NCBI GenBank assembly: GCA_964482725.1
Contig: CAYZYT010000003.1
Coordinates: 49,252-113,251 of the forward strand
Source: an uncultured bacterium
Lineage (GTDB): Bacteria > Omnitrophota > Omnitrophia > Omnitrophales > Aquincolibacteriaceae
DNA length: 64,000 nt
Direction of reading: 5' to 3'
The translations under genes were made by a program, and so were the position numbers. Below are positions 16,541-55,305 of the stretch, piece by piece (within the stretch, counting starts at the first letter, position 1; every line of letters starts with the position of its first letter). The notes below the pieces were generated by a model that saw nothing but the letters and a program-made list of their open reading frames with translations, was not told the origin of the DNA and made no database searches.

Positions 16541-16650
16541 ACCCTAAATCCTAAACAAATCCAAAACAAAAAACTTCAAACTCAAAAGCGTGGTTTTGGA
16601 TTTCGAGTTTTAGACATTTGAGTTTATTTAGGGTTTAGTGTTTTGTGTTT
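16541..16650. repeat. A/T-rich imperfect inverted repeat of the CTAAAYCCTAAA / AAATCCAAAAC family, between convergent genes
   Basis: The left arm is ccctaaatcctaaacaaatccaaaac and the right arm gttttggatttcgag...tttagggtttag. The words are shared with the elements at 29791-29890, 30250-30360 and 39731-39828. It probably also acts as a bidirectional terminator. Confidence 0.5.
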
Positions 16651-16687
16651 AAGGTTTTGCGTGGAAGTTTCTTCGCATTTCAAAAAA

Positions 16688-23731: not shown

Positions 23732-23862
23732 GTCATTCCCGCGCCACCGCCTGCAAAGCGGCGGGGTCCCGCCCGACGGCGGGAAAAGCGGGAATCCAGA
23801 TCGGGATAAACTTCAGAGGGGATTCAGAGATTGGATTCCCGATAAAAACATTCGGGAATGAC
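23732..23862. repeat. MITE-like nested palindrome element, copy E1 of the GTCATYC...GRATGAC family
   Basis: Its termini are GTCATTCCCGCG ... CGGGAATGAC, with internal hairpins (ccgcctgcaaagcggcgg, tcccgcccgacggcggga, cccgataaaaacattcggg). It is a longer relative of the copy at 51574-51637. Confidence 0.5.
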
Positions 23863-30249: not shown

Positions 30250-30360
30250 GTTTAAGCATTGGAAAATTCGAATTTGTTTCGAGTTTCGATATTCGGATTT
30301 AGGGTTTAGCGTTTAGAATTTAGGGTTTATTTTTGTTTCGATGTTCGGATTTTGATATTT
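30250..30360. repeat. Right arm of the inverted repeat flanking the four-helix-bundle ORF (TTTCGATATTCGGATTTAGGGTTTAG words)
   Basis: It is the reverse-complement partner of 29791-29890 and contains three TTTAGGGTTTA-like words. Confidence 0.5.
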
Positions 30361-31420: not shown

Positions 31421-31509
31421 CGTCATCCTGAGCACCGCGAAGGATCCCGCTTTGAGATTCTTCGGCCTGCTGCTTCTTGCTTCCGCAAGAAGCAGGTCTC
31501 AGAATGACG
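31421..31509. repeat. MITE-like nested palindrome element, copy E2 of the GTCATYC...GRATGAC family
   Basis: It reads cgtcatcctgagc ... gaaggatcccgctttgagattcttc ... ctgcttcttgcttccgcaagaagcag ... ctcagaatgacg, and is homologous along its length to 39829-39936. Confidence 0.55.
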
Positions 31510-32895: not shown

Positions 32896-33285
32896 GTGGC
32901 GGGGTGTTCCGTGGCTAAAAAAATTCTGCTGGTCGATGACAGCGCGTTGGTGTGCGCCATGATCAAGACGCAGTTGGAAGAGGCCGGTTATGAGGTCTTG
33001 ATCGCGAAAGATGGGCAGGAGGGTTTGGACCTCGCACGTAAGGAAGTGCCCGATTTTATCTTGCTGGATCTGATGCTTCCAAAACTCGATGGCTATAAAG
33101 TCTGCCGGATGCTCAAATTCGACAAAGTTTTCGAGCATATTCCCGTTATTATTTTTTCGGCTCGGGAGAGTGATGCGGATAAGAAACTCGCGGAGCAGTC
33201 CGGGGCCAACGCGTATATGGTCAAACCGTTCGATCCGGAGTTGTTCCATAAGACGATCCAGAAGTTGACCCGGAACTCAGCCTAG
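32896..33285 (+). CDS. Single-domain CheY-like response regulator (paralog 1 of 4)
   Basis: It has the acidic pocket LLVDDS, phosphoacceptor Asp in FILLDLMLP, and Lys in MVKPFD. It is closest to paralog 4. Confidence 0.85.
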   Translation: MAGCSVAKKILLVDDSALVCAMIKTQLEEAGYEVLIAKDGQEGLDLARKEVPDFILLDLMLPKLDGYKVCRMLKFDKVFEHIPVIIFSARESDADKKLAEQSGANAYMVKPFDPELFHKTIQKLTRNSA

Positions 33286-33313
33286 ATCATTCAGGGATGC
33301 GAGAGTTGCTTCT

Positions 33314-33724
33314 ATGAAAAAAAAGATTCTTTTGGTGGAAGATGAATCCCAGATACGGACGATCATTAGCGCGCGGTTGGCGGCCATGGGTTTTGAGGTG
33401 CTGATCGCGAAAGATGGTCTCGAGGGGCTGCATCTCGTTCGCAAGGAATCTCCGGACGTCGTTTTGTTGGATCTGATGCTCCCCGGAATGGACGGCTACA
33501 AACTATGCCGGATGATCAAATTCGATGTGGCTCTTGAACATATCCCGGTCGTCATTTGTTCGGCCAGGGCGAGTGATGAGGACAAGAAACGTGCAGAACA
33601 GTCCGGCGCTGACGCTTATCTGGTGAAGCCGTTCGAGATCAAATTGTTTGTGGAGACCATCCAGAAGCTGCTAGGGGTCTCACCTTCCAACCAACCTGAC
33701 GGGTTAGAAAAACCAGACTCGTGA
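33314..33724 (+). CDS. Single-domain CheY-like response regulator (paralog 2 of 4)
   Basis: It has the REC motifs LLVEDES, VVLLDLMLPGMDGYKLC and LVKPFE, plus a short C-terminal tail. Confidence 0.85.
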   Translation: MKKKILLVEDESQIRTIISARLAAMGFEVLIAKDGLEGLHLVRKESPDVVLLDLMLPGMDGYKLCRMIKFDVALEHIPVVICSARASDEDKKRAEQSGADAYLVKPFEIKLFVETIQKLLGVSPSNQPDGLEKPDS

Positions 33725-33764
33725 AAAGTTATTGGATAGAGTCAAGGGCGCGTGAGGGGCTTTT

Positions 33765-34133
33765 ATGAAAAAAAAGGTCCTTTTTGTGGAGGATGAATCC
33801 CAGATACGGGAGATCATTCTCGCGCGGTTGACCGCCATGGATTTTGAGGTGGTGGTCGCCAAAGACGGTCTCGAGGGTTTGCGGCTTGTTCGCACGAAAC
33901 GCCCCGACATGGTTTTACTGGACCTGATCCTTCCAAAACTGGACGGCTACAAGCTTTGCCGGATGATCAAGTTCGATACCACGCTTGAGCATATTCCGGT
34001 GATCATCTGCTCGGCCCTGGGAAGCGACGAGGACAAAAAACTCGCCGAACAAGCCGGCGCAGATGCGTACATGATCAAACCGTTCGATATGGATTTGTTT
34101 GTTTCCCTGGTCCAAAAGCTGACGGGTGTTTGA
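33765..34133 (+). CDS. Single-domain CheY-like response regulator (paralog 3 of 4)
   Basis: It has the REC motifs LFVEDES, MVLLDLILPKLDGYKLC and MIKPFD. It is closest to paralog 2. Confidence 0.85.
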   Translation: MKKKVLFVEDESQIREIILARLTAMDFEVVVAKDGLEGLRLVRTKRPDMVLLDLILPKLDGYKLCRMIKFDTTLEHIPVIICSALGSDEDKKLAEQAGADAYMIKPFDMDLFVSLVQKLTGV

Positions 34134-34213
34134 TCTTCAGGTTTGGATTTTGAGAACAGGCGTTTTTAGGGATTTTTATTTTGATAAAATGAAAGGTGAA
34201 TAGGGCGAATTTC

Positions 34214-34582
34214 ATGAAAAAAAGGATCCTTTTGGTGGATGATGAGCCCAATATTCTGACGATCGTGAGCGCGCGCCTGGTGGCCCTGGGTTTCGAAGTG
34301 CTGATCGCTCGAGACGGTCAGGAGGGCTTGGACCTTGCGCGCAAGGAATCTCCGGATGCGATCTTGTTGGATCTGATGCTTCCGAAGCTCGATGGTTATA
34401 AAGTCTGCCGGATGCTCAAATTCGACAAGGTTTATGGGCATATCCCGGTGATCATCTTTTCAGCCAAGGGGAGTGAGGAGTCTAAGAAGATGGCGGATCA
34501 GGCCGGTGCCGACGCGTATATGGTCAAGCCGTTCGATAACAAGTTGTTCGCGGAGACAATGAAGAGGCTGACAGGGGTTTGA
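34214..34582 (+). CDS. Single-domain CheY-like response regulator (paralog 4 of 4)
   Basis: It has the REC motifs LLVDDEP, AILLDLMLPKLDGYKVC and MVKPFD. An alternative GTG start lies at 34196. Confidence 0.85.
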   Translation: MKKRILLVDDEPNILTIVSARLVALGFEVLIARDGQEGLDLARKESPDAILLDLMLPKLDGYKVCRMLKFDKVYGHIPVIIFSAKGSEESKKMADQAGADAYMVKPFDNKLFAETMKRLTGV

Positions 34583-34599
34583 CCCTGATCGGAGAGACG

Positions 34600-36270
34600 A
34601 TGGTCCCAGACGTTAAATTATTAGAATTGTTGGTGAAGCAAGGGATGCTTCAGCAGGAGCAGGCGGATCAGGCCAAAAAAGAGGCGGGTCGCGTCGGCCA
34701 GTCTCTTGAATCCGTTCTTGTGAAGAGCGGTTTTATCACCGATGAAGAACTCGCCAGCACAAAAGCTACGATCCTCGGAGTGCCCTACATCGACATCAAT
34801 AATTATCGTCTCGACCGTGAACTGGTCAAGTTGATCCCCGAGAAGATCGCAAAGAAATACAGTCTTATCCCTCTTTTTTCGACCGGCGAAGCGCTTTCCA
34901 TCGGGATGATCGATCCTCAGAATATCGTGGCCATCGACCAGATCCGTAAACTCACCAACTTTGACGTGGTCGATCCCATCCTGGTCTCCTCAGGAGGTTT
35001 TCAGGCCGCGCTCAACACCTATTATCGTTCCTACGGTTCCATGGCGGATATCGTCAAGACCCTTGAAAAAGAGAAAACGCCCAGCATGGGCGAATCGCTT
35101 TTGGGCGAGATCACTGAGAAGACCCCTGTCAGCAAGCTCGTGGATTCTTTGCTGATGCAGGCCGTTCAATCTCGAGCCTCGGACATCCATATTGAACCTG
35201 AAGAAACGATCGTTTCGGTACGGCTTCGCGTGGACGGGCTTTTGCATCACATCACGACTTTTCCGCTTGTGATCCAAAACGCGGTCGTCTCGCGCGTGAA
35301 GATCCTGGGCGGCATGGATATCACCGAGAACCGGAAGCCCCAGGACGGCAAGATCCGCATGGAGCTCGAGGGGAAGGATCTGGATATCCGCGTTTCAACC
35401 TTCCCGACCCTTTTCGGCGAGAACGTGGTGCTGCGACTTTTGGACAAGCGTGCGATGCTTCCGAACCTTGTGGAATTAGGTTTTTCCAAAGAGAACCTCG
35501 ATAATTTTTCAAAACTGATCACGCGCTCGCATGGCATCATTCTGGTAACCGGCCCCACGGGAAGCGGGAAAACGACTACGCTTTACGCGGCGCTTTCCAA
35601 GATCAACAGCGAAGAGAAAAATATTGTGACGATCGAAGATCCCGTGGAATATGTGCTGCCCCGGGTTCGTCAGACCCAGGTCAATGTCAAAGCCGGCATC
35701 ACCTTTGCCAACGGGCTGCGAGGATTTTTGCGTCAAGATCCAGACATTATGATGGTCGGTGAGATCCGCGATAAGGAGACTGTGGAAATGGCGATCCAGT
35801 CGGCGCTGACCGGACATCTTGTGTTCTCAACCTTGCACACCAACGACGCCCCTTCCGCCTTGGCGCGCCTCATCGACATGGGGGCGGAACCGTTTCTGAT
35901 CTCTAGCTCGGTGATCGGGATCCTGGCGCAGAGGCTTGTTCGTGTGAATTGTCCCAAGTGTCGTGAGCCTTACACTCCCTCAGCTGCGGTGCTCCAAAGC
36001 GTCGGACTTCCGGAGGGAACCCAGGTGATGCGCGGGAAAGGCTGCACCAAATGCAACCAGAGCGGATTCACAGGTCGTATTGGGATCTTTGAGTTGATGT
36101 ACATTACCGATGAGATCAAATCCCTTGTGGATGCTCGTCGTTCGGCCGCGGATATCAAGAAGAAAGCCGTGGAGCAGGGGATGAAGACCTTGCGGCAGGA
36201 TGGTTTAGAAAAAGTCCTGAAAGGGATGACGCCTCTCGAAGAAGTCCTGAGAGTGACCGAGATCGAATAA
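34600..36270 (+). CDS. pilB: Type IV pilus assembly ATPase PilB/GspE family (MshE-like)
   Basis: It has an N-terminal T2SSE_N-like domain, Walker A GPTGSGKTTTLYA, Asp and His boxes, and a tetracysteine motif (CPKCREPY...CTKCNQSGF). The start was chosen at the ATG with a GGAGAG RBS, although the ORF opens at a TTG at 34579. Confidence 0.9.
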   Translation: MVPDVKLLELLVKQGMLQQEQADQAKKEAGRVGQSLESVLVKSGFITDEELASTKATILGVPYIDINNYRLDRELVKLIPEKIAKKYSLIPLFSTGEALSIGMIDPQNIVAIDQIRKLTNFDVVDPILVSSGGFQAALNTYYRSYGSMADIVKTLEKEKTPSMGESLLGEITEKTPVSKLVDSLLMQAVQSRASDIHIEPEETIVSVRLRVDGLLHHITTFPLVIQNAVVSRVKILGGMDITENRKPQDGKIRMELEGKDLDIRVSTFPTLFGENVVLRLLDKRAMLPNLVELGFSKENLDNFSKLITRSHGIILVTGPTGSGKTTTLYAALSKINSEEKNIVTIEDPVEYVLPRVRQTQVNVKAGITFANGLRGFLRQDPDIMMVGEIRDKETVEMAIQSALTGHLVFSTLHTNDAPSALARLIDMGAEPFLISSSVIGILAQRLVRVNCPKCREPYTPSAAVLQSVGLPEGTQVMRGKGCTKCNQSGFTGRIGIFELMYITDEIKSLVDARRSAADIKKKAVEQGMKTLRQDGLEKVLKGMTPLEEVLRVTEIE

Positions 36271-37487
36271 TGGAAGTCTCCTACCGCTATCAAGCCCGTG
36301 ATAAATTTGGACGGTCGGTGGCCGGACAGATGAGCGCCGTCTCCGATACGGAGGTCGCGACCAACCTTAAAACGAAGGGGCTGACTCCCTTTTCCATTGA
36401 GCCTATCGGGGAAAAGGCGTCCCGTGATTTTTTGGCGCCCTTTCGCCGCTTTAAACAAAGTGACGTCAATGCCTTTACGCGTGAGCTTTATACACTGACC
36501 CGGGCCGGATTGACCATCCTGGCATCTCTGGAGGTGATCGGGGAGCAAGACCGAAATCCCGTGCTCAAGAAGATCGTGGAAGGGCTCATCCAAAGTATCC
36601 GGGGCGGTGCGAGCATCTCCGATAGCTTGCAGCGTTATCCGAAGATCTTTAGCGTCCTTTACGTCAACATGATCCGGGCCGGTGAGGTTTCGGGTCGGCT
36701 GGAACAGATCCTGGAGCGCTTGATCTTCATTGGCGAGGCGGAAGAAAAACTTCAGATGCGCGTCAAGGCGGCGCTTCGTTATCCCGCCATTGTCTTTGGA
36801 GCTCTTGTGCTGGCGTTCCTATTTCTCACCAATTTTATCATCCCGCGTTTTGCCGTTCTTTTCACCCAAAGCGGTGTCGAGCTGCCGCTCCCGACCCGTC
36901 TCCTTTTAGGGATCCATGATGCTTTTACGAAGTATGGGTGGGTGACGGCGATCCTCGTGACCGCCCTGGTGATCTTTCTTATCCGATTTCTGAAGACTCC
37001 CACGGGGAAGCTTTGGCGTGATCGTCTCATGCTCAAGGTACCTGTTTTCGGGTCGTTAATTCTCAAATCTGAAATGTCGCGCTTTGCCCGCATCATGGCG
37101 CTTTTGATCCAGAGCGGGATCCCGGCACTTCGGGCTCTTGAGATCGCATCCGGAAGTTCTGATAATAAAGTGATCGTCGGAGCGATCGATAAGATTCGTG
37201 TGAGTGTTACGGAAGGGACCAGTATGACCGAGCCTATGAAGGCGAGCGGCATTTTTCCGCCTTCGGTGGTACGGATGGTCCATGTGGGGGAAGAGACCGG
37301 GAAAATTGATGAGTTGCTTTTAAAGGTCTCGGAATACTATGATATGCAGGTGGAATACACAGTTACCAATCTGATGGTTCTGATCGAACCGATGTTGATC
37401 GTGGTGCTCGGAGGGATGGTGTTTGTGCTGGCGCTCGGGATGTTCCTCCCGATGTGGAATATGATCAAGGTGTTTCAGCACGCATAG
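36270..37487 (+). CDS. pilC: Type IV pilus platform protein PilC/GspF family
   Basis: 405 aa with two GspF-type repeats and 3 TM helices. Its start overlaps the pilB stop (TAATG). Confidence 0.9.
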   Translation: MEVSYRYQARDKFGRSVAGQMSAVSDTEVATNLKTKGLTPFSIEPIGEKASRDFLAPFRRFKQSDVNAFTRELYTLTRAGLTILASLEVIGEQDRNPVLKKIVEGLIQSIRGGASISDSLQRYPKIFSVLYVNMIRAGEVSGRLEQILERLIFIGEAEEKLQMRVKAALRYPAIVFGALVLAFLFLTNFIIPRFAVLFTQSGVELPLPTRLLLGIHDAFTKYGWVTAILVTALVIFLIRFLKTPTGKLWRDRLMLKVPVFGSLILKSEMSRFARIMALLIQSGIPALRALEIASGSSDNKVIVGAIDKIRVSVTEGTSMTEPMKASGIFPPSVVRMVHVGEETGKIDELLLKVSEYYDMQVEYTVTNLMVLIEPMLIVVLGGMVFVLALGMFLPMWNMIKVFQHA

Positions 37488-37506: not shown

Positions 37507-37590
37507 TGGCACTGCTCAGGATTGGCTTATACGGGACCTAATGCAGGTGTTTACACCTATAATGCTACGAGCGGGACTTTCCAGTAATAA
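37507..37590 (+). pseudogene. Pilin gene 3' remnant (last ~25 codons plus the double stop TAATAA) with no start codon
   Basis: It translates in frame as ...LAYTGPNAGVYTYNATSGTFQ**, matching the C-termini of the two intact pilins at 37660-38034 and 38141-38515. An in-frame stop lies at 37501 and no start codon is present. Confidence 0.5.
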
Positions 37591-37659
37591 TTTTTCGATC
37601 GACTTAAGTAAAGTGTCCGGGAATGAATGATGTATAAAAATAACAAAAGGAGAAGTCCA

Positions 37660-38034
37660 ATGTTCAAACGCGAAAAAGGTTTTACGCTCATTGAATTGAT
37701 CATGGTGATCGTGCTGTTAGGTCTTTTGGCGGTTGTGGCGATCCCGCAATACACCAATCTCCAGACCCAGGCCAAGACGGCTGCCGAACAAGGGGTGGTC
37801 GGAGGTGTTCGTTCGGGCATCTACACCAAATATGCCGCCAATCTGGCGCAAAATGTCACTCCGGCCTACCCGGCAACACTAGGCGGAACTGGAAGTTGCA
37901 CAACGGGCAGTCCCTGTTTTGGCAATGTTCTTTCACAGGGGATCACGCAGGATTGGTCAGCCAGTGGTGCGACTTTCACGGGTCCCAATGGTGGTACTTA
38001 CACCTACAACGCTACGACCGGGACTTTCCAATAA
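37660..38034 (+). CDS. pilA: Type IVa major pilin (prepilin with N-terminal methylation motif)
   Basis: It has a 7-aa leader MFKREKG followed by FTLIELIMVIVLLGLLAVVAIPQY. An AAAAGGAGAA RBS precedes the ATG at 37660. Confidence 0.85.
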   Translation: MFKREKGFTLIELIMVIVLLGLLAVVAIPQYTNLQTQAKTAAEQGVVGGVRSGIYTKYAANLAQNVTPAYPATLGGTGSCTTGSPCFGNVLSQGITQDWSASGATFTGPNGGTYTYNATTGTFQ

Positions 38035-38140
38035 TAATCTTTGTGGCGGAGTGATGTGGGGTGTTTCTGCATTAATTGAGGCATAGGGCTGCAAAACGAA
38101 GCAGACCTGTTCCCGACAAATCAACAAAAGGAGAATGTAA

Positions 38141-38515
38141 ATGTTTAAACGTGCAAAAGGTTTTACGCTCATTGAATTGATCATGGTGATCGTGCTGTTA
38201 GGTCTTTTGGCGATCGTGGCGATCCCGCAATACACCAATCTCCAGACTCAGGCCAAGACGGCCGCAGAACAAGGGGTGGTCGGAGGCGTTCGTTCGGGGA
38301 TCTACACCAAGTATGCCGCCAACTTAGCGCAAAATGTCACGCCTGCTTTTCCGGCCACGTTGGATGCCAATGCGAACGGTGCTTGTGTGACCTGCTTTAC
38401 CAACGTTCTCTCTCAACCGATCAACGACACGACCTGGACTAAGTCCGGATCGGCTTATACAGGGCCTAATTCCGGCGTTTACTCCTACAACGCTACGACC
38501 GGGACTTTCCAGTAA
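38141..38515 (+). CDS. pilA: Type IVa major pilin, tandem paralog
   Basis: The leader MFKRAKG is followed by FTLIEL. Its N-terminal 75 aa are near-identical to the first pilin, the C-terminal variable region diverges, and the last ~20 aa are conserved. Confidence 0.85.
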   Translation: MFKRAKGFTLIELIMVIVLLGLLAIVAIPQYTNLQTQAKTAAEQGVVGGVRSGIYTKYAANLAQNVTPAFPATLDANANGACVTCFTNVLSQPINDTTWTKSGSAYTGPNSGVYSYNATTGTFQ

Positions 38516-38544
38516 TAAGATTTGTGCCCGATCACAGTTGTGGA

Positions 38545-39828: not shown

Positions 39829-40304
39829 TCGTCATCCTGAGCTTGCCCCGTTTTACGGGGCGGGCGAAGGATCTCACTTTGAGATTCTTCGGACTGCTGC
39901 CTTCTGCGAAGGCAAGAAGCAGGTCTCAGAATGACGCCTTTCTGCGAAAAGGTGTCACGCTGATAGAACTGATCATGGCCATGGTCATATTGGTCGCGAT
40001 CTCCATCCCGACGGCTTCTATGATCGGAGCGCAGATCCAGGGTATGGCCGAGTCTTCAGACCTTACGGCGGCCGGGAATGCGGCGCGAGCGCAGATGGAA
40101 AAACTCGAGAATACCGCCTATGGAAATGTCACGGCAAACAGCACCACCGTTTCTCCTTACGAGCTGAGCTGGGGCGTCGCGGAGACCGTGAATGGCACCG
40201 AAGCGATGAAAAATATTACGATGAGCATTCAGAGGACCGGGACGTCATCGGTTCTGTTGACGCTTTACAACACGTTCTGTAAGGGTGTGAGCGACGGCGA
40301 ATGA
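39792..40304 (+). CDS. Pseudopilin (type IV prepilin-like) whose 5' end is uncertain or disrupted by inserted repeats
   Basis: The mature-pilin-like segment G-VTLIELIMAMVILVAISIP starts at about 39951. The only in-frame ATG upstream is at 39792, and the 53 aa before the Gly are a read-through of the two repeat elements. No canonical start exists within 20 codons of the Gly. Confidence 0.45.
   Translation: MKTLNTRASLNSVVILSLPRFTGRAKDLTLRFFGLLPSAKARSRSQNDAFLRKGVTLIELIMAMVILVAISIPTASMIGAQIQGMAESSDLTAAGNAARAQMEKLENTAYGNVTANSTTVSPYELSWGVAETVNGTEAMKNITMSIQRTGTSSVLLTLYNTFCKGVSDGE
39829..39936. repeat. MITE-like nested palindrome element, copy E3 of the GTCATYC...GRATGAC family
   Basis: It reads cgtcatcctgagc ... 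ccccgttttacgggg ... gaaggatctcactttgagattcttc ... ctgccttctgcgaaggcaagaagcag ... ctcagaatgacg. Confidence 0.55.
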
Positions 40305-47828: not shown

Positions 47829-50093
47829 ATGAAAAAAATCCTAGGGCTTTCTTTTGGCATTCTGGGTTTCTCGTCGCTTATTTCCCAGGTGGTGGTAATC
47901 CGGGAACTGGCGATGAGTTTTTATGCCAATGAGTTTTTTATCGGCTGGGTTCTCTTTTGCTGGCTTCTTGGCACTGCGTTGGGGAGCGTGCTTGGCTCAA
48001 GGCTTTCTCGCGATGCAAAAAGTGCGTTTCGTATGCTGGGGATCTGTCATGTTCTCGTGGCCGTTCTTTTTCCCATAACGATCACCCTTATACGCTCCGG
48101 CAAGCTTATCCTTGGGACTCCCCCCGGAGCGCTGCCGGGATTTCTCCCTTCGCTCTTTTTTTCGCTTGCGGTCCTTGTGCCCCTCTGTGGGGTACTCGGC
48201 ATGCAATTCGCTATTGCGGCAAGAGCCCAGCGGGCACAACCTTGGGAGGGGGAACAGGGGCCGGAGGTGGGGTGGGCCTATCTTTGGGAATGTCTTGGAT
48301 TCATCGCGGGCGGGGCGGTTTTTAGTCTCGTCCTTGTTTTTGCCAATGAATTTCGCGTTGCGGCGATCCTTGCGATTCTAAATCTTGCGGTGGCTTGTGG
48401 AATTTCCAGGTTGGTTTTTGAAAAGACAAAAAAGGGTGGGTGGCTCCTGGCCCTTGTCGCAATCCTCTTTTCGGCATGGTTTTTTATAAGCAGTTCTTTT
48501 TTACAGCAAGAAACGTCCCAGAGACGGTTTCCGAATGAAACGCTCCTCCGAACCGAAAATACTGTTCATGGCAATGTGTCTGTCACGCGACTAGGGTCGC
48601 AGTATAATTTTTATCAGAGCGGGCTGCTTTTAGGGGCCGCTCGGGAGGATCTTGCCAGTGAATATCTTATCCATTTCCCGATGCTTTCGCATCCGGCCCC
48701 TCAAAAAGTCCTGCTCCTCGGGACCGGGTTCAATGGCCCCTTACAGCAGATCTTAAGGCATGGCCCCCAAGAAGTTCGTGCAGTCGAACTGGATCCCGAA
48801 TTTTTAAAGATCGCGCGAGAATTTCTTCCGGAGGATCTCCAGGCGACTCTACGCGATCCCCGGGTACGGCTTGAGGCCGCGGATCCGAGGGGGTTCCTCA
48901 GGGAAGAAGGAGAGAAGTTCGATGTGATCATCGCCAATTTTCCGGATCCGGCTTCGGTCCTTATTAATCGCAATTATACAGAACAGTTCTTTCGTTCGAT
49001 TCGTGACCGTCTCTCTGCCGGCGGCGTGTTTGCGACCCACATTACGTTTGCGGCGAATACTCTAACGCCGGAGCTGGAGCGTCTCGGCAGTTCGGTTTAT
49101 GCAACGCTCAATCAGGTTTTTCCTTCCGTTCAGGTCCTCCCGGAGGACACACTTTTTTTTCTGGCTTCGGCGGGCGGAGCCTCGAGTTTTGGGCCTCAGG
49201 AAATGATCGACCGGCTTTCCAAGCGGAAAATCAATCCGGATTATGTGACGCCGGATCAGATCCGAGACCGTCTTACGAACGACCGTGTGGAGCGGGTTAC
49301 GACGGCTTTTCGTAATTCGATATGGAAAACGAAGAACACGGACCTTCGGCCGAGGACCTGCTATTTTATGTTCTTGCGGTGGCTCAGTCAGTTCGATCCC
49401 AGGATCACAAAAGCATTCTTTTTTTGGGCCACCGTCCCTTTCCCGGTTATTCTGGCGGTGGGTTTATGCGGGGTTCTTTTGTTCGGTATTTTTTCTAAGG
49501 AACCCGAAGCGCGGATGCAGAAGCTTGCGCATGTCAGTATGGGGACCGTCGGATTTTCACTGATGGCTTTTGAGATCGTGGTGATTTATCTTTTTCAGGC
49601 GGTTTTTGGGAATCTTTATTACTGGCTTGCCGGGGTGATCACGACGTTTATGGCGGGACTGGGCGTGGGAGCCTTGGCGGCGCTAGGCTTGAAAAAGATC
49701 CCTGAGCGATTTGCGCTTGCAGGCCTTCATGGGGTCAATGCGGTGTTTTTCTTTTTACTGATCAAGGTTTTCGAACGGATCTTTTCGAAGGGGATTTTCC
49801 CTGGAGAGGAATATCAGGCCGTTTTCTTAGCCATGGCGCTTTTAGGCGGACTTACCGCCGGGGCGGCTTTTCCATTTGCGAATCGGCTTTATCTCAACCG
49901 GGGAAGAGGGGATCGTCTTGGGAGTGTTTATGCGGCAGATCTTTGGGGGGCGGCGCTGGGGGCTCTTTTGACCGCCGGATTTCTTATCCCGATATGGGGA
50001 ATTCCGCAAACGCTGATACTTCTGGGCGCGTTGAACGTCCTTCTAGTGGCGCTTCTCCTTTTCCGAAAAGACATCGGCCGTAAACACCTGTAG
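47829..50093 (+). CDS. Polytopic membrane protein with an embedded spermidine-synthase-like (aminopropyltransferase fold) domain
   Basis: 754 aa. It has about 7 N-terminal TM helices, then a PABS-like domain (VLLLGTGFNGP...VRAVELDPEFLKIAREFLP...FDVIIANFPDP), then about 5 C-terminal TM helices. Confidence 0.65.
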   Translation: MKKILGLSFGILGFSSLISQVVVIRELAMSFYANEFFIGWVLFCWLLGTALGSVLGSRLSRDAKSAFRMLGICHVLVAVLFPITITLIRSGKLILGTPPGALPGFLPSLFFSLAVLVPLCGVLGMQFAIAARAQRAQPWEGEQGPEVGWAYLWECLGFIAGGAVFSLVLVFANEFRVAAILAILNLAVACGISRLVFEKTKKGGWLLALVAILFSAWFFISSSFLQQETSQRRFPNETLLRTENTVHGNVSVTRLGSQYNFYQSGLLLGAAREDLASEYLIHFPMLSHPAPQKVLLLGTGFNGPLQQILRHGPQEVRAVELDPEFLKIAREFLPEDLQATLRDPRVRLEAADPRGFLREEGEKFDVIIANFPDPASVLINRNYTEQFFRSIRDRLSAGGVFATHITFAANTLTPELERLGSSVYATLNQVFPSVQVLPEDTLFFLASAGGASSFGPQEMIDRLSKRKINPDYVTPDQIRDRLTNDRVERVTTAFRNSIWKTKNTDLRPRTCYFMFLRWLSQFDPRITKAFFFWATVPFPVILAVGLCGVLLFGIFSKEPEARMQKLAHVSMGTVGFSLMAFEIVVIYLFQAVFGNLYYWLAGVITTFMAGLGVGALAALGLKKIPERFALAGLHGVNAVFFFLLIKVFERIFSKGIFPGEEYQAVFLAMALLGGLTAGAAFPFANRLYLNRGRGDRLGSVYAADLWGAALGALLTAGFLIPIWGIPQTLILLGALNVLLVALLLFRKDIGRKHL

Positions 50094-51578
50094 GTTCACT
50101 TTCGGATCTTTCCAACAGTCTCGGGGCAATCCGGCTTTCTGGGAACAAAGCTCGCTCAAGAACTCCTCCTTGCTCCATCCCGTTTCAGTGGCGACTTGTG
50201 GCAGAAAAACCCCGTGATGAAAATCTTTAGAAATTTGAACGCCGTGTTTCCCTAGCTCGATCTCTTGGGCCGTCTCCACTCTTCTGAGCGGGCTCAGGAC
50301 CGAGATCTCGTATTCCAGTTTCCCTAGTTCGTCCGCCGTGACAGGCCTGAAGCGCGGATCCTGAGAAGCGGCGGAAATGGCCATTTGCTGGATGATCTTG
50401 AAAAGAGGCTCCGAGGGCTCGAAGCGGCCGATACACCCGCGAAGCTGGCCATTTTCTTTCAGGGTTACAAATGCACCGAGCCGTGCTGTCAGCGCCGGGG
50501 ATGATGGAGAAAATTCCTGGGTTTTTCCAGTTTGGACGTAACTTTCCACGGTGGCGCGCGCGATCTTCAGAAGTTCTGCCTGGTCCTGCGCGGTCATCCC
50601 TTTTTCATCTGCCCTGGGTGAAAGCGGCTTTGTGCCGGGTTTTGAGGGAAAAGCGACCGCGCCGTAACCGACGACGCGGTTTTTGTCTCCTGCCGGAGAG
50701 TCCCCCGAGTTAGCATATTTTAAAAGAACCGGAGCGGGATCCCCGGCGGCTTTTGCCAGCAGCAGAGCCGTCCGGACTCCGCTGGGGCTACAAAGAAAAG
50801 TTTCGGCTTGCGGGATGCGTTCGGAAGCCAGGGTGTTCAGGATCGCGTTCAGATTCTCCGTTTTTCCGGTCAGGATGGCCTCTAGGACTTTCTTGTCCCC
50901 TTCAGAGGCTTCAGTGTAGGCCGGATAGTGCGACATGTCCGTGCTTGCGACGAGTACTGTTTTTTCATCCATAAGCGACGGGAGGATCGCCGCGAGTTTT
51001 TCTGCGAGTTCCGGGGAATCGCCGCTAAAAAGGATAGGCACGATCTTGAAATCTTTCAGGACGCGTTGGAGGAACGGAAGTTGTACCTCGAGCACGTGAT
51101 CGCCTTCGTAGATGTCCGGACGGTCGACGATGGCGGGGTCTGCGGCAAGGAGTTTTGAAGTGATCGCTTCATCCACGGGGACAAGACCGAGAGGCGTTTC
51201 AAAGGCGCCTCGGGCGTAGATCGCGATGCCGTCGAAAGAATGACGGTGGCTGTTCCCGATCAGGATGACCGTACGGATGTCCCGGTCTTGGAGCACTTTA
51301 TAGGCGTATGCGGCGACCGGTCCCGAATAAACATAACCAGCATGCGGGACCATGATCGCGCGGATCGGTTCCTTGATCTTGGGTGGATCGGCCTGGCGAA
51401 GGAGGGCATCCACGTATGGCTCAAGGGTTGCTTTGTCTCCCGGATAAAATCCTCCGGCCACAGCGGCTTTCCGGATGTTGTTTCCTGGGGCCTCTTTTTT
51501 TTCTCCGGACAAGCTGAACGTAAAGGCTAGGGAAAGAATAGCGAATAGGAGAACATGGACGCTTTTCTTTTTTGTCAT
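50043..51578 (-). CDS. AmmeMemoRadiSam system fused protein: Memo-like (protein B) N-terminal domain plus AMMECR1 (protein A) C-terminal domain, with an N-terminal hydrophobic leader
   Basis: The Memo motifs are AGGFYPGD and MVPHAGYVYSG, and the AMMECR1 motif is LRGCIGRFEP. The start was chosen at MTKKKSVHVLLFAILSLAFTF; the ORF extends further upstream only by reading through repeat E5. It is adjacent to the partner radical SAM gene. Confidence 0.75.
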   Translation of the reverse strand: MTKKKSVHVLLFAILSLAFTFSLSGEKKEAPGNNIRKAAVAGGFYPGDKATLEPYVDALLRQADPPKIKEPIRAIMVPHAGYVYSGPVAAYAYKVLQDRDIRTVILIGNSHRHSFDGIAIYARGAFETPLGLVPVDEAITSKLLAADPAIVDRPDIYEGDHVLEVQLPFLQRVLKDFKIVPILFSGDSPELAEKLAAILPSLMDEKTVLVASTDMSHYPAYTEASEGDKKVLEAILTGKTENLNAILNTLASERIPQAETFLCSPSGVRTALLLAKAAGDPAPVLLKYANSGDSPAGDKNRVVGYGAVAFPSKPGTKPLSPRADEKGMTAQDQAELLKIARATVESYVQTGKTQEFSPSSPALTARLGAFVTLKENGQLRGCIGRFEPSEPLFKIIQQMAISAASQDPRFRPVTADELGKLEYEISVLSPLRRVETAQEIELGKHGVQISKDFHHGVFLPQVATETGWSKEEFLSELCSQKAGLPRDCWKDPKVNLQVFTADVFSEKEKRH

Positions 51579-51637
51579 TCCCGCGAAAGCGGGAATCCAG
51601 GCGTATGGATCCCCGATAGAAGCCTTCGGGGATGACA
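51574..51637. repeat. MITE-like palindrome element, copy E5 of the GTCATYC...GRATGAC family
   Basis: It reads gtcattcccgcgaaagcgggaatccagg ... gatccccgatagaagccttcggggatgacag. The Memo-fusion ATG (minus strand, 51576-51578) lies inside its first arm. Confidence 0.5.
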
Positions 51638-51669
51638 GCAAGGATTTATTAAGATTTGAAATTTTAGAT

Positions 51670-52824
51670 CTATTTCCAAACGCCGGGGATTTTTTCTCCA
51701 TCGGGGCAGGCTCCCTCTTTAAGGTTGTTAGCGATAATAAAATAGCCTTGGCGGACGATCGCTTTTTCTTTTGAGCTTGGGCACCAGGTCGTCTCACCCT
51801 CAGGGTAAGCAATGTTTCCGATATAAACGTATTTTAGGCCTTCTTCCATCGCGATCTGCCGGGCGCGAACCAGCGTTTCAGGCGGCGTGGGCGGCATGTT
51901 CTTTAATTTGTATTGCGGAAAGAAACGGCTGAAGTGGAGCGGCACGTTGTCGCCCAGATTCTCATGGATCCAACGGGCCAAGGCGCGGAGTTCGTCCTCA
52001 CTGTCATTTTCACCCGGAATAAGAAGCGTCACGATCTCAAGCCAGACGCCGCTTTCTTGGATGATCTTCAGGCTTTTTAAAATAGATCCCAGACGACCCC
52101 CGGTGAATTCGCGGTAAAACTTTTCGTTAAATGCCTTCAGGTCAACCTTGTAGGCATCGATCGTTTTCAGGAGTTCCTTCAGAGGTTCTTCTTCGATATA
52201 ACCATTCGAAATGACCACGGTCCTGAGACCTCTGGCTTTGGCGAGTTTTGCGGTCTCAAGCATGAACTCATAGTTGATCACAGGCTCGTTGTAGGTGAAA
52301 GCGATGGATCTTGAGCCGGTTTCCAGGGCCTTGGCCACCACTTGCTCCGGGGTTGCGAGCTCCACCGGGGCGTCTTTGGGAAAACATTGTGAGATCTCCC
52401 AGTTTTGGCAAAAAAGGCAGCTCATATTGCATCCTGTGGAAGCGATCGAAAAGGCCTTGCTCCCCGGCAGGACATGAAAGAAAGGTTTTTTCTCGATCGG
52501 GTCGACATGCACGCTGGCGATCTTGCCGTAAACCATGGAATAGAGTTTCCCCTGGATATTTCTTCGAGCCTTGCAAAGGCCCCACTCCCCGGCGGAAAGC
52601 ACGCATCGACTTGGACAGAGGGAGCACTTGACCATGCGATTGGCGAGTGGCTCGTAGTAGCGGGCCTCATGGGCATTCGCCATGTCTTCCATTTCTGAGC
52701 GAACGGCCTTTTCGCGTTGGTAGACAAAAAAAAGCGCGGTTCCCACCACCAGGACAAGAAAAAAAAGTCCCAAGGATCTTCGGAACAGGGCTGTTGGGCT
52801 CATCGGAAATGTAACCAGAAACAA
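51670..52824 (-). CDS. AmmeMemoRadiSam system radical SAM enzyme
   Basis: It has the N-terminal CxLCPxxC motif (VKCSLCPSRCVLSAGEWGLCKARRN) and the radical SAM CxxxCxxC motif (CNMSCLFCQNW). It may start at the internal Met 45 (MEDMANAHE...), which would drop the predicted N-terminal TM helix. Confidence 0.8.
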   Translation of the reverse strand: MFLVTFPMSPTALFRRSLGLFFLVLVVGTALFFVYQREKAVRSEMEDMANAHEARYYEPLANRMVKCSLCPSRCVLSAGEWGLCKARRNIQGKLYSMVYGKIASVHVDPIEKKPFFHVLPGSKAFSIASTGCNMSCLFCQNWEISQCFPKDAPVELATPEQVVAKALETGSRSIAFTYNEPVINYEFMLETAKLAKARGLRTVVISNGYIEEEPLKELLKTIDAYKVDLKAFNEKFYREFTGGRLGSILKSLKIIQESGVWLEIVTLLIPGENDSEDELRALARWIHENLGDNVPLHFSRFFPQYKLKNMPPTPPETLVRARQIAMEEGLKYVYIGNIAYPEGETTWCPSSKEKAIVRQGYFIIANNLKEGACPDGEKIPGVWK

Positions 52825-53105
52825 AGCGCCAGAAGGATCGCTCCGATCGTGTAAGCGTAAGCTGCGGATAGCTGCTCGCTTTTAGAAAGCTTCCACTGCA
52901 GGAACCTGGCACGGAGAGGGATCACGACATGGACCAAGAACAGGATGTACAGCAACAGGGGAAGGATGTTTTGATGGAGTTGCTTGGCCAGCTGCGGCTC
53001 CATGATGTTTTTGGTGATCCCCAGGCCCGTGAGGATAAAAAGTAACATGAGCACGGCCAGGACCCACCGGCCGGAACGGTCGATCGCGGTAAGAAAATTC
53101 AGCAT
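52800..53105 (-). CDS. Small hypothetical membrane protein (101 aa, 3 TM)
   Basis: The ORF has hydrophobic helices, lies in the same orientation as its neighbours, and overlaps the long form of the radical SAM ORF by 25 nt. Confidence 0.35.
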   Translation of the reverse strand: MLNFLTAIDRSGRWVLAVLMLLFILTGLGITKNIMEPQLAKQLHQNILPLLLYILFLVHVVIPLRARFLQWKLSKSEQLSAAYAYTIGAILLALCFWLHFR

Positions 53106-53124
53106 AAGTTTCGATCCTTTATTT

Positions 53125-53739
53125 TTACTTATTATGGAGAAGCGAATAAAATCCGTAAATAAGAAAAATGCCGCTGACCACGAAGCCGCTCACGCGGGCC
53201 ATGGCCCGGAATTCTTTTGCTTTGGAAGCGAGCCCTAAGAATACAAGCGGCAGGAAATACACAGAACTTGCGAGAAAGAAAAGCGCGAAGTAGATCGCGC
53301 CGTAAAGAGCGCTGTGCTGGGAGAACACATAAGTGACCGACAGAAGGAACGGCGGGCAAAGATTGATCCCCATAAAAAATCCCATGAGTACCGGACTGCG
53401 GCCCCTCAGGAATTTCGGGGGGGAACAGAAGTTTTTCTCGCGAGCAAGGCCCAAAAGATAAAAAAGAAGTATGAGCGAGAGTGCGATGAAGGAAATGTCC
53501 GTCGCGCGACGGAGCCACTCGGCCGCGAACTTTTCTCCGAGGTAGCCCGCCAGCCATCCAAAACAAAGATAGCCCGCAAGCCGTCCTGTCAGGAATTCAA
53601 GGAGGACAAGGAAGTTCTTTTTGGAGCTGCGCTCTTCTGCGCCAAAAATAACCCCCATGAATGGGAAACAATACATGAGGCAGAATGCCCCCACCGAGAG
53701 TCCGGCTAAAAGCGGTTGCAGGAACAGGGTGGTATTCAT
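53125..53739 (-). CDS. Polytopic membrane protein (TauE/SafE- or DsbD_2-like transporter family, tentative)
   Basis: It has about 6 TM helices. The start was chosen at MNTTLF, and the family assignment is weak. Confidence 0.4.
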   Translation of the reverse strand: MNTTLFLQPLLAGLSVGAFCLMYCFPFMGVIFGAEERSSKKNFLVLLEFLTGRLAGYLCFGWLAGYLGEKFAAEWLRRATDISFIALSLILLFYLLGLAREKNFCSPPKFLRGRSPVLMGFFMGINLCPPFLLSVTYVFSQHSALYGAIYFALFFLASSVYFLPLVFLGLASKAKEFRAMARVSGFVVSGIFLIYGFYSLLHNK

Positions 53740-53808
53740 CTTTTGGACTTTATCCTCCAGGACGTTATAATACCAAAATTCCAAGCGAGCTGTTCCTGAA
53801 TTTCAAGT

Positions 53809-55305
53809 TTGTTTTGCCCGCGCGAAAGGATATCAGACGTGAAGGTCTTTTTTTTAAATATTCCTTACCATGAGCGGTTTACCCGCGAAAGTCGTTCTCC
53901 GGGTGTCGCGCCTTCAGGAACCCTCTATTATCCCATCTACCTTGCGCTTGCGGCGGGTCTTGTGCGAAAGCACGGGTGCACGATCGACTTTCTGGATGCC
54001 CCGGCCGAAAGCTATGATCTCGGGAGGACCGAGGAGCGCGTGGCGCAATTCCGACCCGACCTTATTGTTGCGACGACGGTAACCGCTTCTGTTTTCCATG
54101 ACGTCAAAATCATGGACCAGCTTGCAAAGAAGACCGGGGCCCTGACGATGCTTGTCGGTACGCACCCGACCGCTCGGCCGCTTGAAACTCTTAAAATGTC
54201 TGAAAGCCTGGACTTTGTCGCCGTGGGAGAATACGACCTTACGGTTCTTGAGGTGGCGCAGCACTTCGCCGAAGGGAAAAAACGCGAAGAACTTTCTTGC
54301 GTCAAGGGGTTGGCTTTTCGCTTGGGGGATCAACGGATCCTGAACGAACGACGGCCGTGGCATGAAAACCTCGACGAGATTCCCTGGGCGAGTTTGATCT
54401 ACCGGGACTTTTTAAAGATCGAGCATTACAGCTACGGCGCTCAACTCCATCCTGAAGTCACGATCGTGAGCGGTCGTGGTTGTCCCTATCAATGCACCTT
54501 TTGTGTATTTCCGCAGACCATCACGGGACAGCGTTACCGGCCGCGTTCGGTCAAAGACGTGGTCGACGAAATGGAGTTCATTCAGAAAACGTGGCCCCAT
54601 AACAAGGAGATCATGTTCGAGGATGATACGTTGACCGTGGACAAAGATCGCATGCGCGCTCTCTCGGAGGAGATCTTGCGCCGTAAGCTCAAGGTGACTT
54701 GGTCCGGAAATGCTCGAGCTGATTTTGACGACGTTCTGCTTTTGAAACTCATGAAGAAAGCCGGGTGCCGTCTGTTTTGTGTCGGGTTTGAGTCCGCCGA
54801 CCAGGCGATCTTAGACGAGATGCGAAAAGGCGGGGCCACGATCAAGGTCCGGGAACGTTTTGTGAACGCTTGTACCGAGGCCGGGATCATGATCCACGGA
54901 TGTTTTCTTTTCGGCGGGGCGAACGAGACCCGCGAAAGCATGCGTCAAACGCTTGAAATGGCGAAACACATGAAGCTTGATACCGCCCAGTTCTTTCCGA
55001 TCATGGTCTATCCCGGGACGCGCGCCTACGAAGAGGCCAAGGCGAGCGGGGAGCTGGATTCCGAGAATTATGACGAGTGGCTTCGGGGCAGCGGCTACTA
55101 TGCCTCTCAGATCCACCGGGGAGCATTGACCGGCGAGGCGATCGCGAAATTCACAGATCTCGCTTACCATGAATTCTATCTGAGGTCTTCTTTTATTCTT
55201 CGAAAGGCATGGCAGTTCTTGTTTTCTCCCGCGGAACGATCGCGGATCCTTTTCGGATTTCAGTTCTTCATGAAAAAGATATTCACCCGGGAAAAGACCC
55301 CATGA
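53809..55305 (+). CDS. B12-binding domain radical SAM protein
   Basis: The N-terminal cobalamin-binding Rossmann-like region is followed by a radical SAM core with CPYQCTFC and a C-terminal domain. Confidence 0.8.
   Translation: MFCPRERISDVKVFFLNIPYHERFTRESRSPGVAPSGTLYYPIYLALAAGLVRKHGCTIDFLDAPAESYDLGRTEERVAQFRPDLIVATTVTASVFHDVKIMDQLAKKTGALTMLVGTHPTARPLETLKMSESLDFVAVGEYDLTVLEVAQHFAEGKKREELSCVKGLAFRLGDQRILNERRPWHENLDEIPWASLIYRDFLKIEHYSYGAQLHPEVTIVSGRGCPYQCTFCVFPQTITGQRYRPRSVKDVVDEMEFIQKTWPHNKEIMFEDDTLTVDKDRMRALSEEILRRKLKVTWSGNARADFDDVLLLKLMKKAGCRLFCVGFESADQAILDEMRKGGATIKVRERFVNACTEAGIMIHGCFLFGGANETRESMRQTLEMAKHMKLDTAQFFPIMVYPGTRAYEEAKASGELDSENYDEWLRGSGYYASQIHRGALTGEAIAKFTDLAYHEFYLRSSFILRKAWQFLFSPAERSRILFGFQFFMKKIFTREKTP

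Follow-up and report, generated by a model that had tools for sequence, protein, structure and literature searches.

Among prokaryotic systems without known function, AmmeMemoRadiSam ranks with the most widespread, and no biochemical function was found published for it in the literature searched; its human relatives, MEMO1 and AMMECR1, are linked to disease. In a stretch of 64,000 nucleotides (nt) from an uncultured Omnitrophota bacterium, termed here the window (contig CAYZYT010000003.1, positions 49,252 to 113,251), two adjacent genes of this system encode proteins that both begin with a hydrophobic segment. This raises the question of whether the system works at the cytoplasmic membrane and, if so, on which side of it. 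The genes belong to a minus-strand cluster, running from 53739 to 50043, that encodes in order a six-helix protein of the DsbD_2 family, a three-helix protein, a radical SAM enzyme of family TIGR04337 (hereafter rSAM) and a Memo-AMMECR1 polypeptide (hereafter the fusion). The cluster appears from its layout to be translationally coupled. The best explanation of the whole, held here with moderate confidence, is that this cluster and a convergent gene for a 14-helix protein constitute a membrane-tethered AmmeMemoRadiSam variant, with Memo-AMMECR1 at the outer face and rSAM most likely on the same side. At the sequence level, family membership, conserved leaders, conserved partners, an intact Memo metal site, the AMMECR1 cysteine and an upstream, overlapping start of the fusion gene are the established elements of this picture.

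Core proteins and their N-terminal leaders

A preliminary description of the locus had named it an AmmeMemoRadiSam system with fused Memo and AMMECR1 domains, and hidden Markov model (HMM) searches bear this out, all three TIGRFAM scores lying far above the curated cut-offs. TIGR04336 (protein B, Memo; cut-off 26 bits) matches residues 36-310 of the fusion at 247.4 bits, and TIGR04335 (protein A, AMMECR1; cut-off 99 bits) matches residues 335-504 of the same polypeptide at 186.7 bits. TIGR04337 (cut-off 220 bits) matches rSAM at 378.4 bits. Pfam concurs (Memo PF01875, 180.5 bits; AMMECR1 PF01871, 195.5 bits; Radical_SAM also matched). The two minus-strand open reading frames (ORFs), 50043-51812 with an in-frame ATG at 51576-51578 and 51670-52824, contain the motifs VKCSLCPSRC, CNMSCLFC, AGGFYPGD, MVPHAGYVYSG and LRGCIGRFEP. 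In the Memo domain (50649..51473, minus strand), H79, H111, D214, H217 and C263 (numbered on a 511-residue form of the fusion) are invariant. An alignment of 31 diverse fusions shows the Memo metal ligands and the LRGCIG cysteine of the AMMECR1 domain (50067..50576, minus strand) without exception, and PHAGY, xSH and SxDxxH stand at positions equivalent to those of human MEMO1 chains. Judged by these residues, the Memo metal site of the fusion is intact. The AMMECR1 domain aligns to archaeal PH0010 (PDB 1VAJ, E=2e-34). The rSAM and fusion genes are adjacent and overlap by 32 nt, and an rSAM gene adjoins the fusion gene in 37 of the 84 related loci in which gene neighbours were compared. By every criterion that can be tested on sequence, the window system is a member of the AmmeMemoRadiSam family.

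The rSAM gene (51670..52803, minus strand) encodes 377 amino acids (aa). Its start is most likely ATG 52803 rather than TTG 52824, because this ATG and the TGA ending the 101-aa ORF before it overlap as ATGA, most rSAM orthologs listed have 374-378 aa and the public gene call is the 377-aa sequence. The radical SAM cluster motif CNMSCLFC (CX3CX2C) has computed coordinates 52408..52431, and an extra N-terminal cysteine motif, CSLCPSRC...C, lies at 52573-52626, both on the minus strand. The TIGR04337 profile begins only at residue 47. A predicted membrane helix precedes it at residues 10-28 (SLGLFFLVLVVGTALFFVY; 52720..52776, minus strand), with RR before, QREK after and a mean Kyte-Doolittle value of 2.38. 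At the C-terminus of rSAM (51697-51786) a CxxC...CxxC pair is degenerate (WCPSS...ACPDG), likewise throughout the clade associated with DsbD_2; the pair is present in relatives with leaders of the twin-arginine translocation (Tat) type, in those whose leaders resemble signals of the general secretory (Sec) pathway, and in leaderless ones.

The hydrophobic core of the fusion leader, a putative signal or anchor (VHVLLFAILSLAFTFSLSG), lies at 51504..51560 on the minus strand and has a mean Kyte-Doolittle value of 1.96 (residues 7-25 of the 511-aa form); LSLAFTFSLPGEKKE is conserved in the Omnitrophota orthologs. A basic n-region, a hydrophobic h-region and conservation in orthologs mark it as a Sec-type signal peptide or anchor. 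No lipobox cysteine is present in the window fusion leader (...LSLAFTFSLSGEKKE). In relatives from Verrucomicrobia, Chloroflexota and other groups, a lipobox occupies the h-region position.

Conservation was followed in the best 120 fusion homologs and the best 120 rSAM homologs. By the names of its homologs, the source bacterium belongs to Candidatus Omnitrophota. All 120 fusion homologs carry both Pfam domains, and 109 of the 111 scorable ones have a hydrophobic N-terminal segment, 26 of them with a lipobox-like cysteine. The rSAM helix is present in 120/120, as a rule after a basic pair, which is usually KK and is RR in only 8/120. These counts bear on whether the hydrophobic N-termini might be annotation artefacts, produced by start codons set too far upstream. 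That is a general risk, and the late start of the rSAM profile at residue 47 would be compatible with it. Against it stand the conservation of the segments in both sequence and position, their replacement by lipoboxes and Tat signals in other phyla and the ATGA coupling at the rSAM start; the artefact explanation was set aside as effectively refuted by the orthologs and retains almost no probability.

The claim of the preliminary description that the leaders imply membrane anchoring or export thus stands, for rSAM as for the fusion, and leader conservation, named there as the point on which it could fail, is nearly complete. Its remark that such leaders are unusual does not stand, since hardly any fused Memo-AMMECR1 protein lacks one. 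Fusions of this kind also abound: 3365 clusters at 50% identity reach E<=1e-30 with the window fusion, and a relative is encoded in at least 590 of the 600 candidate stretches listed from a scan of GTDB species-representative genomes. Among the 150 best representatives of 50%-identity clusters, all are full-length fusions, mostly with signal or lipoprotein signals. A script scored 103 of these and found a hydrophobic leader in 83, with a lipobox in 34 of those 83; in most of the 47 that the script left unanchored, a leader is visible by eye. These sequences show a leader to be the rule for the architecture, and the window locus is ordinary in its clade. One relative (P0373, 861 aa) carries its Memo-AMMECR1 fusion behind a 400-residue multi-helix membrane domain with no Pfam match. 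Exported forms of AmmeMemoRadiSam are unmentioned in the literature searched. A 2019 study by Burroughs et al. in J Biol Chem reportedly linked Memo contexts to nucleotide-base and isoprenoid modification, and prior mention of the leaders or neighbours there is possible.

Partner genes and the side of the membrane

Comparison of gene neighbours in related genomes, which the preliminary description had proposed, reveals three recurrent membrane-protein partners. The first gene of the cluster (53125..53739, minus strand) encodes the 204-aa DsbD_2 protein (PF13386, 66.8 bits vs a cut-off of 24.9), and GGAGGA stands upstream of its ATG at 53739. Of its four cysteines, two lie in helix 1 (C20 and C24, GxxCxxxCxPF), one in a cytoplasmic loop (C105) and one in helix 4 (C128, NxCPPFL); all are invariant or near-invariant among 24 locus orthologs and 35 database homologs. 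The gene occurs in 23 loci, each with an rSAM gene; in one group it precedes rSAM, and in another (L055, L060, L067, L071) it follows the fusion. It is present in 23 of the 25 loci in which rSAM bears a hydrophobic leader not of the Tat type, either helix-anchored or Sec-like, in none of 10 with a Tat leader or no leader and in none of 36 Tat-type metagenome loci. This distribution suggests that DsbD_2 serves the non-Tat rSAM by way of reductant or metal. The AlphaFold2 model has a pLDDT of 83, and fold searches with it gave only generic six-helix matches; solved CcdA/DsbD members gave neither a sequence match nor a significant structural match.

The second gene (52800..53105, minus strand) encodes the 101-aa protein with three predicted membrane helices, whose stop codon takes part in the ATGA at the rSAM start. 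Pfam and NCBIfam searches gave no match and the public gene call is 'hypothetical protein'; homologs are found at the same position in eight loci, including Verrucomicrobia.

The third partner, the spermidine-synthase-like protein of 754 aa, is encoded convergently at 47829..50093 on the plus strand and is predicted to have seven helices, a domain of the class I fold that binds S-adenosylmethionine (SAM) and seven more helices. It matches PF01564 (79.5 bits) and the NCBIfam model NF037959, 'fused MFS/spermidine synthase' (51.9 bits vs a cut-off of 40). Equivalog models for polyamine aminopropyltransferases stay below their cut-offs (PRK03612, 174 vs 472 bits; speE, 82 vs 249.6), and by our own reading GTGFNG stands in place of GGGDG and the DSSDP-type motif has another residue for its first aspartate. 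Under the seven-domain-seven model, mean K+R content over 24 orthologs is 1.8-3.7 in inside loops and 0.04-2.0 in outside loops, and the positive-inside rule therefore places the central domain outside. The gene adjoins the fusion in 27 of the 84 loci, in several phyla and both orientations (co-directional in L075, L078 and L080, convergent in other phyla), and in 39 of 80 metagenome loci (L089-L168). These came from a scan seeded with six Tat-type rSAMs, a seed that biases the proportion of Tat leaders among them but not their existence. Four loci keep the adjacency without rSAM (L003, L004, L027, L086). The tail-to-tail overlap with the fusion gene is 51 nt in the window (50043-50093); overlaps of 44-52 nt are kept in L001, L004, L005, L007, L009-L011, L013, L015 and L038, and L008 has one of 77 nt.

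Perhaps these three neighbours are only inherited synteny, the system consisting of the two core genes alone. Most loci with them are from Omnitrophota and other lineages related to Planctomycetes, Verrucomicrobia and Chlamydiae, many loci of the Candidate Phyla Radiation have none of them, and further recurrent neighbours are plainly housekeeping or pilus genes. This explanation is nevertheless considered improbable: the DsbD_2 gene changes position around the core genes and never occurs without rSAM, while the spermidine-synthase-like gene varies in orientation among phyla, stays adjacent when rSAM is absent and recurs in 39 of the 80 independent metagenome loci. Other recurrent neighbours that emerged from clustering (pilus or type II secretion, MtaB-like, RsmE-like and similar genes) were set aside as lineage synteny. 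A DUF362 protein with its own twin-arginine signal is encoded in 24 of the 80 metagenome loci with Tat-type rSAM (e.g. L154 732-1751), and in L003, which lacks adjacent rSAM and DsbD_2 genes, a thioredoxin-fold protein (5486-5944) is encoded directly upstream of the exported fusion. A scan of 49800-54300 found promoter-like sites at the level of shuffled sequence (3 vs 2.2) and terminator-like sites in excess of it (15 vs 6.6), nearly all inside coding sequence and none at a gene end.

Lipoboxes and proline/threonine-rich linkers in relatives argue for export of the fusion. For rSAM, the argument for an extracytoplasmic system rests on Tat signals carried by related rSAMs and on a fusion of all three domains in one chain. 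Six loci from Chloroflexota and Hebobacteria in GTDB have [ST]RRxFLK leaders on full TIGR04337 members, and the Tat signal model TIGR01409 passes its cut-off in three of them (L059, L066, L078). A Tat regular expression is matched in 36 of the 80 metagenome loci, with KR variants in several more, and TIGR01409 reaches E<=1 in 27 of 57 scanned metagenome leaders (best 8e-6). Six further loci show Sec-like, cleavable-looking signals on rSAM. The triple fusion, P0388 (835 aa, on the 6-kb contig L085), consists of a signal peptide, Memo, AMMECR1 and rSAM, and its sole hydrophobic segment is the N-terminal one. In P0023, found on three contigs from different samples, the body of rSAM is deleted in frame, so that an rSAM-type leader heads Memo-AMMECR1. 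At loci of this type (L086 5001-6602, L087 4216-5817), what is left is DsbD_2, the hybrid-leader Memo-AMMECR1 and a spermidine-synthase-like gene.

Several observations weigh against placing the window rSAM outside. Its leader is not Tat-like: the helix is strongly hydrophobic, the pair before it is RR in few orthologs, and in searches with TIGR01409 and PF10518 neither model matches. Tat export of the window rSAM, suggested by its FRRSLGL, was rejected on these null matches and on the lack of conservation of RR. Basic residues directly after the helix (RRE, REK) are conserved, as would fit a cytoplasmic flank, and over the 120 best orthologs the mean K+R value is 2.1 for the flank N-terminal to the helix and 2.7 for the C-terminal one. 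In four loci a leaderless rSAM stands beside a leader-bearing fusion, and the two proteins need therefore not share a side of the membrane. Sec export delivers unfolded protein, and we know of no Fe-S assembly system outside the cytoplasm, nor of a SAM source or low-potential electron source there. To our knowledge, no exported radical SAM enzyme has been characterised, and a targeted full-text literature search found no periplasmic or Tat-exported one. The topology calls come from our own hydropathy and charge rules and not from SignalP or DeepTMHMM, the gene co-occurrence counts ignore phylogeny, and NCBI and JGI label the DsbD_2 protein 'sulfite exporter TauE/SafE family', which leaves its role ambiguous.

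These points are taken up by a split topology, in which the rSAM helix is N-out/C-in, the catalytic domain is cytoplasmic and only Memo-AMMECR1 is outside. The enzyme would remain in a compartment with Fe-S clusters, SAM and reductant at hand, and would act on an inner-leaflet lipid or on a client before Sec export, possibly Memo-AMMECR1 itself. It would resemble the anaerobic sulfatase-maturating enzymes, which modify sulfatases before their export. KK rather than RR before the helix and the conserved RRE/REK after it, the four loci with leaderless rSAM and the relationship of TIGR04337 to protein-activating enzymes (the best solved match is the pyruvate formate-lyase activating enzyme, PFL-AE) all favour such an arrangement. 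The many rSAM relatives with Tat signals do not, nor do the triple fusion, whose only signal is N-terminal, the P0023 proteins, in which an rSAM leader serves the exported partner, and the tracking of DsbD_2 with rSAM leader type and not with fusion export. The split topology is a real possibility, although a minority one.

There is about an even chance that both window proteins lie wholly outside, and a membrane-tethered system is a much more likely description than that. In the favoured arrangement, Memo-AMMECR1 would be exported and stay attached to the cytoplasmic membrane on its outer face, a state that relatives appear to exhibit as lipoproteins, and rSAM would act at this membrane too, most likely from that side as well. 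There it might abstract hydrogen from a membrane-embedded or envelope-bound substrate, which Memo with its metal centre and AMMECR1 with its cysteine would then process. The DsbD_2 protein may be a transmembrane carrier of reducing equivalents or of a thiophilic metal and in this way mature or sustain a non-Tat rSAM, and the spermidine-synthase-like protein may bind or deliver a SAM-type cosubstrate.

A wider proposal can be offered tentatively, and is itself rather doubtful: that many mostly anaerobic bacteria maintain a whole radical-SAM pathway on the outer face of the cytoplasmic membrane. The rSAM would arrive there folded by way of Tat, or by a non-Tat route with maturation or reduction through DsbD_2; the 14-helix protein would supply or present a SAM-type cosubstrate, and Memo-AMMECR1 would complete the modification of an envelope lipid or polymer. 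The window would be a complete non-Tat example.

The window genes are an ordinary case within a very large and apparently undiscussed class in which Memo-AMMECR1, and probably rSAM too, are at or outside the cell membrane. Exported Memo-AMMECR1, rSAMs with Tat signals, a triple fusion and dedicated partners would together make the clade an unexpected form of a known system, and one open to test. If this location applies to a large share of AmmeMemoRadiSam systems, the search for function narrows to the cell envelope and its substrates to envelope or membrane molecules, and three candidate accessory proteins are gained. It also raises the question of how a radical SAM enzyme obtains Fe-S clusters, SAM and electrons outside the cytoplasm. 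AMMECR1 has been listed among priority uncharacterised archaeal families (PMC6393860) and was, in one study, the Pfam domain of highest importance among the anaerobe markers listed (PMC13386939).

The fusion start codon and the 63-nt repeat

A second question concerns where translation of the fusion begins. A 552-aa form (50043..51701, minus strand) starts at ATG 51701-51699, 32 nt inside the 3' end of the rSAM gene; an alternative 511-aa form starts at ATG 51578 (51576-51578, minus strand), inside a palindromic repeat of 63 nt. The preliminary description correctly placed the second ATG in the repeat. It also took this ATG for the real start and regarded the longer upstream ORF as mere translation of the palindrome, and here the comparison of ortholog start sites that it called for points the other way, to ATG 51701 and the 552-aa form as the conserved one.

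A GGGAG motif resembling a Shine-Dalgarno sequence (51711..51715, minus strand) lies 9 nt upstream of ATG 51701, within rSAM coding sequence. The upstream ATG, with GGAG exactly 9 nt before it, is found within the last 32 nt of the rSAM gene in all 13 Omnitrophota loci compared; five outgroups in which the fusion gene starts after the rSAM stop codon have neither. In Omnitrophota the rSAM glycine codon in the overlap is without exception GGA with a G after it; the outgroups have GGC, GGG or TCC there. In L013 the upstream ATG is kept despite a change of the overlapping rSAM residue from Asp to Asn. The frame is open from this ATG to the Memo domain in 13/13 loci, across 11 spacer lengths of 51 to 87 residues. 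Shine-Dalgarno-like cores precede 14 of the 38 long ORFs of the window, against a background of 14%. A public gene collection holds the 552-aa fusion for the contig of the window; the 511-aa form is absent from it.

The repeat (GTCATTCCCG...CGGGGATGAC; 51574..51636) forms two hairpins and encodes SSPKASIGDPYAWIPAFAGMT, part of the signal n-region. Its 63 nt correspond to 21 codons and are in frame, and ATG 51576-51578 lies in its ...GGGAATGAC end. The same insertion occurs in frame, with the reading frame open, in two orthologs, L001 (92% identical) and L088 (76% identical); at this site other orthologs, e.g. L013, carry hairpin inserts of other kinds. The mRNA fold prediction puts AUG 51578 in a long stem formed by the repeat ends, with a GGGA abutting it without spacing.

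Could the repeat have donated the start codon, translation beginning at ATG 51578 and the upstream in-frame ORF being fortuitous? MTKKKS followed by a hydrophobic core is a textbook short n-region, and gene callers choose internal starts in some orthologs (e.g. P0002, P0011). Such a start is judged unlikely in view of the retention of the upstream ATG and GGAG in 13/13 loci, including L013 with its D-to-N change in rSAM, and of the frame that stays open across 11 distinct spacer lengths; the exact length of 21 codons, the predicted stem with GGGA abutting the AUG and the public 552-aa gene call point the same way. The conserved start is probably ATG 51701, overlapping the 3' end of the rSAM gene. 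The length of 21 codons, the in-frame occurrence in orthologs and the AUG in a predicted stem suggest that the repeat is probably an in-frame insertion in the signal n-region and not a start-codon donor. Both starts, 51701 and 51578, may be used.

The repeat belongs to a family of palindromic elements of 63-131 nt, bounded by GTCAT(T/C)C and G(A/G)ATGAC and built of hairpin modules, with four or five copies in the window. Three or four related GTCAT...ATGAC elements lie elsewhere in it, among them those at 23732-23862, 31422-31508 and 39831-39935. The repeat has terminal inverted repeats, and at four copies inspected no target-site duplication is visible. An Rfam search of the repeat region gave only a sub-threshold match to RAGATH-34 (21.7 bits vs 60.7).

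Some other features of the window may be mentioned. A divergent gene at 53809-55305 (plus strand) encodes a B12-binding radical SAM protein whose best match is HpnJ, which is hopanoid-associated (339 bits, cut-off 577.6); in the close relative L001, glycosyltransferase-2 and methyltransferase genes follow it. Four tandem paralogous genes for single-domain CheY-like receivers (32896-34582; 68-78% DNA identity) stand directly upstream of genes for a PilB/GspE-like ATPase (34579-36270) and a PilC/GspF-like protein (36270-37487). Tandem pilin- or pseudopilin-like genes follow at 37627-38034 and 38141-38515; their N-terminal halves show 89% DNA identity over 241 nt, and the repeat units extend from 37516 to 38523. 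Short TTTAGGG-like repeats (ATTTAGGGTTTAG...) are found at two distant sites, 16626-16671 and 30297-30328.

Comparison with known systems

The classical AmmeMemoRadiSam system of separate soluble proteins shares with the window system its three domain families and adjacent genes, as well as the rSAM CX3CX2C motif and extra N-terminal cysteine motif, the Memo metal ligands and the LRGCIG cysteine. In contrast, the window system has Memo and AMMECR1 on one polypeptide with a signal or anchor, an rSAM with an N-terminal membrane helix and three membrane-protein partners, and the C-terminal CxxC...CxxC of rSAM is degenerate in its clade.

By sequence only, the closest solved relative of the rSAM core is PFL-AE (PDB 3C8F, 3CB8; E=3e-12), and the activases of glycyl-radical enzymes provide the next-best NCBIfam matches. 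However, all these models are far below cut-off for rSAM (e.g. 70.8 vs 231.75 bits), no glycyl-radical enzyme is encoded near it, and it differs in its membrane helix and additional cysteine motif.

Fe-S proteins exported by Tat and held by N-terminal signal anchors exist, for example Rieske proteins. Relatives of rSAM have canonical twin-arginine signals, and at the equivalent place the window rSAM shows a basic pair followed by a helix. The window clade differs in that the pair is mostly KK, the helix is very hydrophobic and TIGR01409 is unmatched; the window rSAM is thus not a demonstrated Tat substrate.

With the CcdA/DsbD electron carriers, the DsbD_2 protein has in common six helices in a 3+3 arrangement and proline-adjacent cysteines in helices 1 and 4. 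It differs in a score below cut-off for PF02683 (DsbD_TM; 21.4 vs 27.1), in the CxxxC of helix 1 and in its fourth, loop cysteine; a role as metal carrier is equally possible. The 754-aa protein resembles the fused spermidine synthases of the major facilitator superfamily (MFS) type (NF037959; PRK03612-type) in having a spermidine-synthase fold between many membrane helices, but its signatures are degenerate and its central domain is predicted to face outward.

Lastly, the 63-nt element shares some features with intergenic palindromic repeats of the repetitive extragenic palindrome (REP) or miniature inverted-repeat transposable element (MITE) type, the latter a tentative label from the preliminary description. 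It is short, with inverted repeats at its ends and hairpins within, and belongs to a family with several intergenic copies in the window. Unlike such repeats, it shows no visible target-site duplication, and the copy at 51574-51636 sits within coding sequence and is translated in frame. It shows neatly how a signal peptide can tolerate a palindromic repeat in frame.

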